From: Eledone cirrhosa
Lineage: Eukaryota
DNA length: 64,000 bases
Direction: 5' to 3'
Assembly (NCBI GenBank): GCA_964016885.1
Contig: OZ024760.1
Span: 5,580,001-5,644,000 of the forward strand
Shown: positions 4,901 through 57,971 of the stretch, one piece after another
Position numbering within the stretch: the first letter of the stretch is position 1
Layout of the letters: each line of letters begins with the position of its first letter
Notes under the pieces: generated by a model
Told to the model about the DNA's origin: nothing
The model's input: only the letters and a program-made list of their open reading frames with translations
Database searches by the model: none
Program-made: the position numbers and the translations under genes

Positions 4901-5096
4901 CCTTGTGTGTGTGTATGTATGTATGTATATATATATATATATAATGTAGGAGGTGAGTTTTATTGTAGTACAATAAAGCAATGCAGATATCGGATAAGAA
5001 GCACTCTACAGTTTGTAGGACTGGAGTATACATAATATGTTGATTTAAAACTGCACTATCCACAAGTGTTTTTTAGCCTTCATATCATGTTCTCCT

Positions 5097-5165
5097 GTTT
5101 TATCTGATGAAAACACAAATATTATTGCATGATGATGTTTGTTTTTGAAATGCGCATAATAAAAT
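5097..5165 (+). ncRNA. Type I hammerhead ribozyme motif (Penelope/retrozyme-like)
   Basis: ttttat-CTGATGA(5104-5110)-stem II acaaatattat/atgatgtttgt-GAAA(5147-5150)-palindromic stem III ATGCGCAT-A-ataaaa. Confidence 0.75.
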
Positions 5166-6021
5166 ACATGGAACTCCTTTAACTATCTTTTGATCTTATA
5201 TTATATATATATATATATATATATACACACACACTCACACTCACACTCACACACACACATGCACAGCATCATCATCATTTAACATCAGCATAAAAAACAG
5301 ATGTTAAAGGATTATATACTCATGCACAGATACACGACTGCACTCATATATATATATATATATACATACATACACACACATATACGCACATACAAATACG
5401 CATATATTCATATACATAAACACACACACATATACATAGATATTTATAGAGAGATTTATATATACACATACACATATACATGTGTATATAGTAGAGAGGT
5501 AACGAGTTGTTGGTGTGGTGGGAGATGGGAATTAGTCAATCACTTGTGGATCATTTGATTGATCTGATTGGTTGGTCCATTTGTTTTTCCTCTCTAAATA
5601 ATAACCATCACCACCTCACCACCATCACCACCACCATCACCATTGACTGTTATTATTGCTGTAAATTTTATCAGAGTAACTTGCTGCCTGCCTTACTGTT
5701 GGTATCTCATCACTCTCACACATACCTTTAGTTATTATATACTGCAGAGAGTTAGTTACAGTAGATCTACAATTCTATCTATTGATCTATCTGTCTATCT
5801 GTCTATACAGCTAGCTATTTTATTCATACACACACACACACACATACATATATATATATATATATATATATATATATATATATATATATATATATATATA
5901 TATATATTTAAAATTTAGTAGAAATAGCTTTCATTTTTTTTTTTTTTTTTTTACTTAAGAAATTTTAGCCTGATTGTGGGGTTTAAAAACTAACTTACTT
6001 GTCATATATATATCTATCTAT

Positions 6022-6168
6022 CTAAGGCGGGTAAAATTCCCGAGATCCATGGACGAGTTCTCTCCAGCGGTCTCTGTCCCTCATTATCGCTGCCATATCC
6101 TGCATCTCCAACAGACCAGTGTCTGTCCTTAGGGCATCAACATACGTTAACCTTGGTCTACCTCTTCT
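6022..6168 (-). mobile_element. LINE (RTE-like) 3' terminal fragment
   Basis: Minus frame RRGRPRLTYVDALRTDTGLLEMQDMAAIMRDRDRWRELVHGSREFYPP* followed by a (TAGA)n tail. Confidence 0.75.
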
Positions 6169-6493
6169 ATATATATAAACACACAAATATACATACACAT
6201 ATATATATATATTAAGATAATTGTAACAAGTAATGTGTTATTTACTGACCTATATCACTGCCAGGTCGAGATTTGACACTCAACATGTTGGCCTAAAAAT
6301 GTAATTAATTTCTCTTGTTTTTCACAATCACCCTTGCCCTATTGGTGAGGTCTGCTATGTAACGAAAAGGGCCAGTATTGAAGGAGTTAAGTAGTGTTTA
6401 TATATATGTTAACATTGGTATAATGACCCTTACCTTATAGTAAGGTTCGCTTATACAGTAGAAAGGGCCATTAGTATTCAAGAAGTTAAGTAG

Positions 6494-6895
6494 TATATAT
6501 ATTGTTTATATGTAGCCGATCTCTTGGACTTTTACGAAACGCTGAGAGGATAAAGTTATGTATATATATATTGTTTATATATAGCCGATCTCTTGGACTT
6601 TTACGAAACGCTGAGAGGATAAAGTTATGTATATATATATTGTTTATATGTAGCCGATCTCTTGGACTTTTACGAAGCGCTGAGAGGATAAAGTTATGTA
6701 TATATATTGTTTATATGTAGCCGATCTCTTGGACTTTTACGAAGCGCTGAGAGGATAAAGTTATGTATATATATTGTTTATATGTAGCCGATCTCTTGGA
6801 CTTTTACGAAGCGCTGAGAGGATAAAGTTATGTATATATATTGTTTATATGTAGCCGATCTCTTGGACTTTTACGAAGCGCTGAGAGGATAAGTT
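6494..6895. repeat. Tandem repeat, ~67-bp unit x6
   Basis: gccgatctcttggacttttacgaagcgctgagaggataaagtt at 6514, 6584, 6653, 6720, 6787, 6854; single related copy at ~45090. Confidence 0.92.
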
Positions 6896-7749
6896 AATAT
6901 AAATTGTGGTGTGCTCATGTGCTTAGATGCGATAAAATAGCTTATAAAATAGGGTGTGTGTGTGTATATATATATATATATATATATAGAGGGTGTTTTA
7001 CATATAGGGTGTTATACATTGGTATAGTGAGAATGATGAGTGCCACGGATCTCCTCTGTGGGACGTTGTGCCACGGGTGGCTATGTCATGGAGAATTACG
7101 TAACCAGCAACAAGATTGGGGAAATATGAAATGTGGACGTTTTCATTGGTAAGACTATATAAATACCACCATTGTCATCGTCAACACCACCACCACTATC
7201 AACACCACCACCACAACTATCATCAACACCACCATCATCACCACCACAACTATCATCACCACCACCACCACCACCACCATAACTATCACCACCACCACTG
7301 TCATCACCACCACCACCACCACCACCATAACTATCATCAACACGACCATCATCATCGTCAACACCACCACCACAACTATCATCATCACCACCATCACCAC
7401 CATAACTATCATCAACATCACCACCATCACCACCATAACTATCATCATCACCACCATCACCACCATAACTATCATCATCACCACCATAACTATCATCACC
7501 ACCACCATCACCACCATAACTATCATCATCACCACCACAACTATCATCATCAACACCACCACCATAACTATCAACACCACCATCATAACTATCATCACCA
7601 CCACCATCACCACCACAACTATCATCATCATCATCACCACCAACATCACCACCACAACTATCATCAACACCACCATCATCATGTTTTCCTCACTCAGCTT
7701 CTACCACTGAAGATATATTACATTGTCAGCAGTTGACAAGACAGTAAAT

Positions 7750-54670: not shown

Positions 54671-55174
54671 AATATGGTTTTATAAATATAGTTTCCATTT
54701 ATTAATATCTTATATATATATATATATATATATATATATATATATATATATATATATAAGTATTGAAGTTTCCGTTGAAAATTGAAAAAGTCATAGGAGT
54801 GAAGAGTGCTCTGTGTAAGTTACAGAGCTAAATTTAATGTATAATAAACAATATATAATTACTTCATTACCAGAGGTTTCCCGAATAAGACGAATAGAAC
54901 GAACGAATGCGGACGTTTCTTGTATTCGTCTTATTCGGGAAACCTCTGGTAATGAGGTAAATTATATTGTATTGTTTATTATATATATAAATGAAAGGTA
55001 TAGAAATTGTTTTAGCGAGAAGCTAACAGTATTCCATAACATATATATATATATACACGGGTGTGTACGATTATGTATAGAAGATTATATTAATAAAAGG
55101 AATTCCAACTTTGTCTGATTTACTCGTTTTATTTACAATCCTTTAAAATTATAATATTATAATAAAAGACAATA

Positions 55175-55213
55175 TGAACCTGAAGATTGCGAAAGCATGA
55201 AAGTACTTGTTCA
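55175..55213 (+). ncRNA. Minimal type I hammerhead motif (39 nt)
   Basis: TGAAC-CTGAAGA-tTGC GAAA GCAt-GAAA-GTAC-TT-GTTCA; palindromic AAGTACTT stem III. Confidence 0.75.
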
Positions 55214-57085
55214 ATTAACACTTAACATTTAATATTCTACCATACTATTTCATTATAATTTTAAAAGATTGTAAATAAAACGAGTAAATCAGACAAAGTT
55301 GGAATTCCTTTTATATATATATATATATATATATATATTTATTTATTTATTTGCCACAAGGGCGTACAAAAATGGGACATTACAAGACGTGACGGCGAAA
55401 GAATATATTGTAATGTTATTTATGTATATATTTAAAACATATTTGTTATGTTATTCTACCGTAAATTTATTCACATGCTCTGTTTATATTTTCACTGTCA
55501 AAGAATTGCAAACAATTTGTAATGTTATTTATACAACTGTGAATAATAAACTATATATAAAATAAAATAACAATCGAAATCCCCAATAGGGAGGAACAGT
55601 ACACCACGTAGATAGAACCCTCAACACCAGGAGCACGTTTTGTAGGTGTTCCTGTCTTCCTCAACCTACAGGTTTATATACAGAGAAGGACCATTCACTC
55701 GGGCCATTTCCGTCACGTTCATCCACCTTTCAGCGAATTTACAGAGGTGTACCACCTCTCTCTCTCCACTCTCACCTTCCTTCTGAAGTGGCATTTAAAG
55801 AAGATAGTGAGTTGTTGTCTATATATATATATAACGTGGTGTCCTTGAAATATGTATAATAAAATAAATATGGTTTTATAAATATAGTTTCCATTTGTTA
55901 ATATCGTATGTTTACTCCAAATACTTGTTGAGTGCTTTATATCAGTTATAAAAATATTTGCTTGTTGTATCTCAACAATTTAAATAGAACTTTTGTATAT
56001 ATATATATATATATATATATATATATATATATATATATATATATATATATATATATAACGAAGGAAATGTGGTAAGGAACCAGGCGGACCATAACGCACC
56101 AAAGTACTCAATACTTAGGGTAGTAGAGTGGGTAATAGGAACGAGTAGGACCCCGACGGCTGAGCTCAAGCCATTTCGACGGCTAATTCTGGACTGAACG
56201 GCTAATTCTGGACTCAGTCCAGAATTAGCCCTCGAAACGGCTTGAGCTCTGCCGTCGGGGTCCTACTCGTTCCTATATATATAGAGAGAGAGAGACAGAG
56301 AGAGAAAGAGTAAAATATTTTTCACAGATAGACGAACGAAGAGGAAGTGGATTAAAAGTAAACAAGAAAAACGAAAATGTTCAAATATCCCAGATGAAAT
56401 TAGCCGGAATGCCTTTATATATAAAGGCACCGTTGAATAGGTGACGATCGTTTACCGACAGCAGTTTCTAATCGGCCCGATTGTTTACAAACGTATCGAA
56501 CGTTACTATTAATGTTCGATATAACCCATATGTATATATATATGTGTATGTATATATATATATATATATATATATAACGAGGAACCAGATGGATCATAAC
56601 GCACCAAAGTACTCAATACTTAGGGTAGTAGAGTGGGTAATAGGAACAAGTATGACCCCGACGGTGTGTGTACGTGTGCATACTTACATTTATATATCAG
56701 CTGTGCTAGGGCGAGAAACAAAATTCTAATTTTATATATATATATATATATATATATATATATATATATATATAAAAATGACATTTGTTTATTTTTAATG
56801 GACTAATATCGATTGATTTTCGATATAACATCAATGTCCACTCTTACTGTGCAATATCTGAAACTTGTTAGCCATTAAATATATACATGTATTCATAAAT
56901 CTTCGTTGTTCTCTCCAGCATTTTAAATATATATATATATATGTGTGTGTGCGTTGGATGCCAAAATTTCTATAAATTTGGTGGCCTACTGATGAGTTCG
57001 GTTAGGGGTGTGTTTATATTTACTATATATATATATATATTATTCAGAATATTAATAAATGAAAACATTCACATAATCAAAATAT

Positions 57086-57153
57086 ATGTTTTATTATATA
57101 TATTTCGAAGGTACTGTGCTGTTTTTTCAGTACGTCCTCGTCAGATAAAATAT
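57086..57153 (-). ncRNA. Type I hammerhead motif
   Basis: Minus strand tattttat-CTGACGA-GGAcGTACTG/CAGTACcTTC-GAAA-TATATA-TA-ataaaaca. Confidence 0.75.
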
Positions 57154-57461
57154 ATGATTTGATGTATGACATACCTCAACGGTCTTGATGGTTTAATTCC
57201 AGTATTGGCAGTACTGAAAAAACAGCACAGTACCTTCGAAATGTATATAATAAAACATATATTTTGATTATGTGAATGTCTTCATTTATTAATATTCTGA
57301 ATAATATTAATAACTCCAGAAAACTTTCACTGCGGAGTGCTTTTAATCTATTGTAAAGCTATATTCATTGAGTAATCAATTAACCATATTAATCTTTGGT
57401 TATATATATATATATATATACAATATTAAATAAATGGAAACTATATTTATAAAACCATATT

Positions 57462-57527
57462 TATTTCATTATATATATTTCGGGGATATCATATTAACAA
57501 TATGCTATGCCTTCCTCAGACAAAATA
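57462..57527 (-). ncRNA. Type I hammerhead motif
   Basis: Minus strand tattttgt-CTGAGGA-aggcatagcatatt/aatatgatatcccc-GAAA-TATATA-TA-atgaaata; same family as 54606-54670. Confidence 0.7.
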
Positions 57528-57971
57528 CAATATTGTTAATATGATATCCCCGAAATATATATAATGAAATAAATATGGTTTTATAAATATAGTTTCCATT
57601 TATTTAATATTGTAAATATACTCCAAATATTTGTCGAGTGCTTTTATATCAGTTATAAATATTTACTAGTTGTAACCCAACAATTTTAAATATAACTTTC
57701 CATATATATAAATATATATATATATAGAAATTATATTTGTTTGGCAGGTGATCTGAGACGGGGGGGGGGGGGGTCAAAACAATTATATTGTGAAAGATTC
57801 GTGTTCGTCATTTAACATACAAACAAACAAACAAACTGTTAAATTCACTTTATATTTGTAAACAATTTGTAATATTCATTTATACAACTGTGAATAAAGT
57901 ACATTATCATAAAGGTGTTGCAGTGGACGAAAATATTGACAGCTACAAAATAACTTATTACGTGAAGTTTT

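Follow-up and report, generated by a model that had tools for sequence, protein, structure and literature searches.

The window analysed here, a stretch of 64,000 nucleotides from the genome of Eledone cirrhosa (assembly GCA_964016885.1, contig OZ024760.1, forward strand, positions 5,580,001 to 5,644,000), holds a series of short islands that carry type I hammerhead ribozyme motifs among runs of the dinucleotide TA. They are examined here as candidate ends of Penelope-like elements (PLEs). The host genome is 3.0 Gb in size and microsatellite-rich, and the window contains 85 runs of at least six TA units.

Hammerhead motifs and islands in the window

A first-pass annotation, made from the letters alone, had named nine hammerhead positions (5104+, 10158+, 23638+, 26937+, 54005-, 54614+, 55180+, 57144- and 57519-), and the core was seen at every one of them. 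Using a widened descriptor, six intact type I motifs were found (5104+, 26937+, 54614+, 55180+, 57144- and 54005-), each with a CUGANGA or U3-A8 core, GAAA, NUH and three stems, while 100 dinucleotide shuffles in 200-nt blocks gave a mean of 0.06 and a maximum of 1 at equal score. The same scan recovered the A6>G copy at 10158; a stricter first descriptor had returned three motifs against a shuffle mean of 0.05 (20 shuffles). The widened form tolerates a U.U pair or a single additional base at the bottom of helix II, accepts the U3-A8 core and longer helices, and was prompted by family copies and by Cervera and De la Pena (2014; PMC4209133). Since the descriptor was thus changed after the data had been inspected, the independent test is a genome sample of 40 evenly spaced 10-kb stretches (400 kb), in which 34 motifs were found against a mean of 0.5 in 20 shuffles. 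The helix III segment was fully self-complementary in 21 of these 34, a feature outside the demands of the scan.

Three motifs, rather than the two announced, are damaged: 10158+ has a CUGGUGA core (A6>G), 23638+ ends at the cleavage site, so that the 3′ strand of stem I is missing, and in 57519- stem II has an A.C mismatch at its base. The motif at 54005- is not counted among them, because its U3-A8 core is a variant described in PMC4209133. At least six partial motifs had been noted and seven pieces were mapped, excluding matches from two library entries that extend into an adjacent repeat. Stem III, said to be usually palindromic, is AGTACT at 55180, but 10158 and 26937 have an ordinary stem III of 4-5 bp with loops of 8-9 nt. 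Another feature outside the demands of the scan, a C.Y mismatch at position four of helix II, is common to the motifs of families A, F and H and islands C and I, with the flanking pairs changed. At gathering score Rfam reports no hammerhead in the window, only a single 19-bit match inside the hammerhead cluster, in line with the earlier statement that such motifs are poorly annotated; Rfam microRNA matches were dismissed as hairpin or microsatellite noise.

The islands have the layout of PLE insertions, with an inverted 5′-truncated copy and a tail at one end; an inverted pseudo-long terminal repeat (pLTR) and a tail of 30-40 bp, in many cases confined to one end, are reported for PLEs in PMC8557442. 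The family A island (4944-5201, +) begins with an inverted tail (4944-5038), followed by a direct pLTR arm with an intact hammerhead (core 5104, helix III ATGCGCAT, predicted cleavage after 5158). A short inverted arm and a direct arm with tail make up the family B island (10125-10289, +), whose damaged hammerhead (core 10158, CUGGUGA) has a 4-bp helix III and a predicted site after 10196. Island C (23364-23682, +), 80-82% identical to the 3′ unit of family F, comprises an inverted arm with tail and a direct arm ending at the cleavage site (core 23638). The family D island (26849-27045, +; core 26937) has a long helix II, a 5-bp helix III and a predicted GUC site after 27020. Three partial pieces lie in this part of the window: a head-to-head pair of partial hammerhead ends with helix III ACCACTGGT, both lacking the CUGA core (11409-11642), an end of D/K type (25738-25809, +) and an end of the family with helix III AGGACT (48749-48852, +).

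The region 53881-57726 is a nest of at least ten PLE ends of several families with a TA run between each, produced by repeated insertion into one target area. It opens with the family E island (53915-54369, -), a direct arm carrying the U3-A8 hammerhead (core 54005, predicted site after 53967) and part of the tail in inverted orientation at 54316-54369. In the family F island (54386-54710, +) an inverted arm with a tail of about 90 nt precedes a direct arm with an intact hammerhead (core 54614, helix III ATATATAT, predicted site after 54662). A diverged fold-back with a partial hammerhead-family end follows (54786-55000; 75% identity over 54786-54880), then the family G island (55056-55311, +), an inverted arm with a tail of about 35 nt and a direct arm with an intact minimal hammerhead (core 55180, helix III AGTACT, predicted site after 55208). 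Further pieces are an F-like arm, 92% identical to F, which is cut within helix II and ends with a tail (55829-55995, +), a head-to-head pair of family K with partial hammerheads, one long end and one short end (56058-56276), and a lone inverted tail piece of K type (56580-56664, -). The nest closes with the family H island (57040-57400, -), whose direct arm has an intact hammerhead (core 57144, predicted site after 57095) and whose inverted arm with tail spans 57211-57400, and with island I (57421-57712, -), a diverged F copy of 92% identity with a damaged hammerhead (core 57519) and an inverted arm with tail at 57525-57702. Family H is 72-75% identical to family F over 61 nt. Every copy in the window is single or inverted, none is a tandem repeat, and the short copies encode nothing.

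ORF-bearing parents elsewhere in the genome

Several sequence families had been proposed, and all seven searched across the genome proved multi-copy. The searches gave 487-1215 first-look candidates per family (at least 487 for A, 1215 for B and 1085 for H), the best 40 of which were scored in each case, so all counts are lower bounds. Of the seven, five (A, B, E, F and G) run upstream, in copies elsewhere in the genome, into coding sequence for a Penelope-like reverse transcriptase (RT) and a GIY-YIG endonuclease. The suggestion that the hammerheads belong to Penelope pLTRs is thereby borne out, and the linkage to RT and GIY-YIG open reading frames (ORFs), which had been proposed as a check, exists in copies outside the window. 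Judged by their sequences, four parents are assigned to the Hydra type (A, B, E and F) and one to the Neptune/Nematis type (G).

Family F is represented most completely. Its scored copies are 98-100% identical, the full element is bracketed by two pLTR copies 4.1-4.2 kb apart (loci L031 and L032), and an open frame of 737 amino acids is present in L108. The stop codon lies 1617 nt from the cleavage site in this 4.2-kb unit. Sequence searches of Pfam and PDB miss both the RT and the GIY-YIG part of the protein; it was identified by a fold search, in which the model (predicted local distance difference test score 91) matched telomerase RT (TERT) best, with an E-value of 4.5e-9. A homologue search returned 326 relatives, the best named one from Argonauta hians. 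The single ORF joins a telomerase-like RT to a C-terminal GIY-YIG domain and contains DKT (114-116), YRDD, CxCx5C and CxxC-E-N-CxH; RWR is found at 33-35, where 87 of 118 homologues have K and 25 have R at the same site. In the endonuclease, VVY..YVG and the residues R, H, E and N are conserved, a CxxC between GIY and YIG occurs in none of the 118 homologue rows, and CCHH is absent. By these motifs, family F is best classed as a Hydra-type PLE.

A stop codon within the family F endonuclease is shared by 15 of 30 copies (L073-L102; TAA in 12, TAG in 3), the others having Lys or Gln, and this share is biased because the query itself carried the stop. Read-through was rejected, given the sense codon at this place in the other 15 copies. 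The pattern suggests that defective family F subfamilies are amplified in trans.

For family A, the end of a Hydra-type endonuclease, read by eye, lies 870 nt upstream in L103, and it is also upstream in L156. Hydra-type coding sequence precedes family B in L158 and L159, and the same Hydra-type endonuclease precedes family E in three independent loci (L168, L171 and L177/L181); the 40 scored copies of E are 99-100% identical. Family K has a Hydra-type ORF 1.3 kb upstream at one locus only (L180). The coding sequences upstream of A, B, E and K are partial or broken copies with 28-50% identity to the F protein in tblastn. Family D, which is related to K, is old, its copies being 74-85% alike, and Hydra-type matches stand head-to-head with it in 2 of 15 loci. 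For family H, no ORF match was found at 14 loci examined with 1.5-kb flanks, and islands C and I are assigned provisionally, by their likeness to F. The family G parent, with RT and GIY-YIG, is present in L214, L216 and L218 and as a 4302-bp tandem in L228; it has a CX4CxxC linker and a CCHH-type C-terminal GIY-YIG, with E-values of 3.5e-7 for RVT_1 and 5.6e-6 for GIY-YIG.

The window had been said to lack a Penelope RT/GIY-YIG ORF, which holds for Hydra-type coding sequence (tblastn with the F protein and the list of ORFs), a Neptune-type query not having been run on the window. An RT frame of 863 amino acids with RVT_1 and PHD domains (11956-14547, -) was rejected as a partner, as it had no tblastn match to the PLE protein; we take it to be an RTE-type long interspersed element.

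Some further observations concern these families. Many family B copies (L134-L152) share the CUGGUGA core, so copying went on with a ribozyme that is probably inactive. The tail of family E (L154, L115) contains the splice-donor-like GGTAAGT; PLEs are reported to have an intron in the 5′ untranslated region (UTR). RT frames at L161:4076-5203 (-) and L172:3-1478 (-) resemble further PLE clades (YVDD core) and are unmatched by the Hydra query. About 40 hammerhead sequence types, including U3-A8 cores and forms with a long helix III, occur at bystander positions in the flanks of L002-L229.

Fixed ends, TA targets and the origin of the short copies

The proposed targeting of (TA)n is matched by the 3′ ends, 104 of 118 of which adjoin TA in copies of six families (27 of 29 in family F). 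Of the 34 sampled motifs, 24 have a TA run no more than 200 nt downstream, compared with 18% of background positions. TA runs beside PLE ends are not clearly longer than others (median 9.5 versus 9 units), and at least 44 of the 692 runs sampled are next to a library end; a major role of PLEs in making TA arrays is therefore not supported.

In every family the 3′ ends are of two fixed kinds, short ends and long ends that include a tail. Tails measure about 85-90 nt in F, 82-90 in A, 100 in H, 104 in E, 75 in B and 30-40 in G. For L031, the family F tail is the stretch that separates the upstream pLTR from the start codon of the ORF. The queries of families F, G and H leave the end free, and in these families 29 of 30 head-to-head pairs combine a short with a long end (P 3e-8 against 50:50, the most generous null), after removal by hand of two ambiguous G pairs and three double-listed F pairs. 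Families A, B and E were left out because their queries fix or favour one end; with these biased queries added, the count is 60 of 62, with two B ends intermediate.

The 5′ ends also accumulate at particular positions, counted from the cleavage site. They fall at -76 to -72 in 11 of 19 copies of G, at -119 to -116 in 10 of 13 of H and at -46 to -44 in 9 of 19 of B, and the long parents have TATA boxes at -104, -150 and -74, that is 31, 32 and 29 nt above the pile-ups. Within the upstream 600 nt of each parent, about 2% of positions have such a spacing. Bystander copies, at loci fetched for other reasons, never extend beyond the pile-ups (8 of B, 6 of H and 1 of G). Family A has a pile-up at -124/-125 (5 of 12 bystanders). 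The pLTR is reported to hold promoter and start site, and since the 5′ ends of three families pile up 29-32 nt below a TATA box, many islands are likely complete copies of the 5′ end of the element RNA, primed at the upstream pair of start sites. Such an origin would need no separate non-autonomous family, but leaves room for one.

We consider it probable that the islands are short 3′-end (pLTR) copies of mostly Hydra-type PLEs in (TA)n, made by nicking of both strands and priming at two sites. This reading draws on what was observed of family membership, linkage to RT and endonuclease, TA-abutting 3′ ends, the two 3′ ends, their pairing and the 5′ pile-ups. The RT/GIY-YIG protein would nick both strands of a TA array, and because the array is palindromic, each strand should provide a 3′-OH. 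From one 3′-OH, reverse transcription would start at the far site on the element RNA and produce the tailed long end; from the other it would start at the near site and produce the short end, the result being a head-to-head insert with the tail at one end. The start sites lie at ATAT/TATAT stretches, which probably anneal to the nicked target. If the RNA starts about 30 nt below the TATA box in the upstream pLTR, both sites would be near its 5′ end; priming there would leave copies of 150-300 nt with a fixed 5′ end, and priming in the downstream pLTR would give ordinary 5′-truncated or full copies. In families with a self-complementary helix III the hammerhead is predicted to act on the precursor as a dimer, and in B, D and K it may cut as a monomer. 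Because inserted copies extend across the cleavage site, the template for copying was presumably uncut or religated. In vitro, the tail is delimited by two internal RT start sites, and cutting and extension occur on both strands (PMC11167929).

Several observations weigh against this account. There is no TATA box in the family A parent L103 despite the pile-up at -124; family F has no sharp TATA-linked pile-up (8 of 28 ends, spread over -137 to -118), none of the 18 5′ ends of family E is at the predicted position, where the query itself also ends, and the pile-ups of B and H lie at or 8 nt from the query edge, with only the best 40 candidates scored. In family G only 9 of 19 ends adjoin TA. 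D, H, C and I are not linked to an ORF of their own, and full-length F, E and G exceed the size of less than 3 kb given for Hydra. By folding energy, monomers of the motifs are not distinguishable from shuffles, the z-scores being weak (-2.4 to +0.7). Finally, the start site of the anole element studied in vitro is non-homologous to the cut DNA, unlike the proposed annealing of ATAT (PMC11167929).

The first-pass annotation favoured non-autonomous, retrozyme-like families. In this scenario, self-standing families resembling retrozymes or short interspersed elements (SINEs) would be transcribed from solo copies; after cleavage, and perhaps circularisation, PLE proteins would mobilise them in trans. 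Fixed 5′ ends would suit it, as would a 5′ extension of 3-5 nt that is shared by three family A copies (L048, L050, L051) and absent from the ORF-linked L103 and L156, suggesting that a composite was re-copied; an ORF-bearing master with an inverted arm, like L031, accounts equally well for that extension. True tandem retrozymes of 310-311 bp with TA flank and inverted arm do exist elsewhere in the genome (L244, L157). Nevertheless, the five families continue into RT/GIY-YIG sequence, short copies are near-identical to ORF-linked pLTRs, and no copy in the window is tandem, tandem repetition being the defining trait of animal retrozymes (PMC7229834). We regard a self-standing origin as improbable. 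Random 5′ truncation with snap-back self-priming, the pile-ups being stops at hairpins or microhomologies, appears more doubtful still. The junctions are often palindromic, self-priming has been proposed for such junctions (PMC3846280), and truncation is broad in F and E. However, three families share the TATA spacing, solo copies of G without a fold-back begin at the same place as the others, and snap-back alone does not yield one short and one long end. The least credible alternative, DNA transposons resembling miniature inverted-repeat transposable elements with inverted ends and TA targets, or chance AT-rich motifs, could appeal to the TA-flanked fold-backs and to ATATATAT being cheap in this genome; it is refuted by the linkage to RT and by the shuffles in window and genome sample, and arm lengths vary among copies while the arms continue into RT genes.

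Beyond copying of PLE 3′ ends by two-site priming, a more speculative and rather unlikely extension can be envisaged, in which PLE ribonucleoproteins twin-prime from both nicked strands of a single TA palindrome, at two fixed sites on the capped RNA 5′ end, and so make 'strong-stop' copies from start to tail, TA replaces the lost TATA, and the copies are themselves transcribed and re-mobilised, feeding a load of about 250,000 ribozymes. If so, the load would be denser than the published animal counts that were found.

Genome-wide load and relation to known systems

Intact motifs occur at about 85 per Mb in the genome sample (bootstrap 50-128) and at 94 per Mb in the window, so the window is typical of the genome in this respect. 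Extrapolated to 3.0 Gb, this gives an estimated 250,000 intact hammerheads (range 150,000-380,000), from a sample that covers 0.013% of the genome, is evenly spaced rather than random, and has 5 of its 34 motifs within one tandem array. Published counts, made with other descriptors, are 2,000-9,000 PLE hammerheads per genome (PMC4209133), more than 6,000 in a coral and 126,247 in axolotl (PMC7229834); the giant squid has 235 Rfam hammerhead matches (PMC6962438). By comparison with the axolotl and squid values, the ribozyme content of cephalopods may be badly undercounted. A literature search without subscription journals, Repbase and Dfam found no octopus hammerhead count, start-anchored short copies or strict short/long pairing.

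The PLE class is known and the window is no discovery in itself; what makes it useful is scale and mechanism. With their thousands of copies, young families offer a natural read-out of the unresolved integration step of PLEs, namely two fixed start sites, each used once per insertion, and a candidate transcription start. The window also includes a Sec7 exon (9372-9989, +), an enoyl-CoA hydratase exon (50756-51046, -) and a tRNA gene (29151-29221, +). The hammerheads at 5104, 10158, 23638 and 26937 are on the strand of the Sec7 gene. If sense-strand intronic copies in general cleave as predicted, host pre-mRNAs could be affected. An abundant short repeat at 11210-11367, 23796-23953, 47324-47483 and 47872-48029, which we take to be SINE-like, is unrelated to the hammerheads.

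Penelope is abundant in coleoids (PMC8967140), with families reported active in O. vulgaris (PMC13282606), and for Octopus bimaculoides the listed element Hydra-1_Obim prefers (TA)n and carries a hammerhead (PMC8557442 supplement). As Hydra PLEs with hammerheads and (TA)n targets are published there, this kind of element is already known. Family F shares with the Hydra clade (Craig et al., 2021; PMC8557442) a C-terminal GIY-YIG without CCHH, DKT, CxCx5C, CxxC and CxH around E and N, a type I hammerhead near the 3′ end and (TA)n targets. It differs in having RWR instead of RWK and in its 4.2 kb with a 3′ UTR of 1.6 kb, whereas listed families measure 1.1-3.0 kb; here there are also many families rather than one, and Hydra-type tails are 75-105 nt instead of the published 30-40. 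The family G parent, which may be of either type, shares GxKF, the YLDD RT, the CX4CxxC linker, CxxC in the GIY-YIG, head-to-tail tandems and a tail of about 35 nt with Neptune/Nematis-type PLEs.

Animal non-LTR retrozymes (PMC7229834; bioRxiv 10.64898/2026.07.22.740005) are likewise short, non-coding and PLE-related with type I hammerheads, but are tandem repeats of 150-450 bp giving circular RNA, whereas the window copies are single or head-to-head with ORF-bearing parents. The head-to-tail units with a hammerhead in each that define retrozymes are thus missing from the window; the arrays seen elsewhere (L244:8400-10000 on C3, at about 360.008 Mb, and L157:3560-4600; helix III ACGCGT) open with (TA)n and an inverted arm, the signature of PLE insertion, which supports mobilisation of retrozymes by PLEs. 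The minimal PLE hammerheads of PMC4209133 also derive from truncated PLEs and are scattered as single motifs or as pairs on opposite strands 100-700 bp apart; palindromic helix III, the U3-A8 variant and high stem variability are shared as well, at the far lower numbers, under a different descriptor, given above. As for mechanism, Poseidon of the green anole (Frangieh et al., 2024; PMC11167929) shares the two internal start sites that define the tail, cutting and extension of both strands, an AT-rich target and uncut RNA as template. Its start sites, however, lie in the ORF, its tail is 30-40 nt and its start is non-homologous to the target; those of family F lie in the 5′ UTR at ATAT/TATAT, and the two ends observed here are paired almost strictly.

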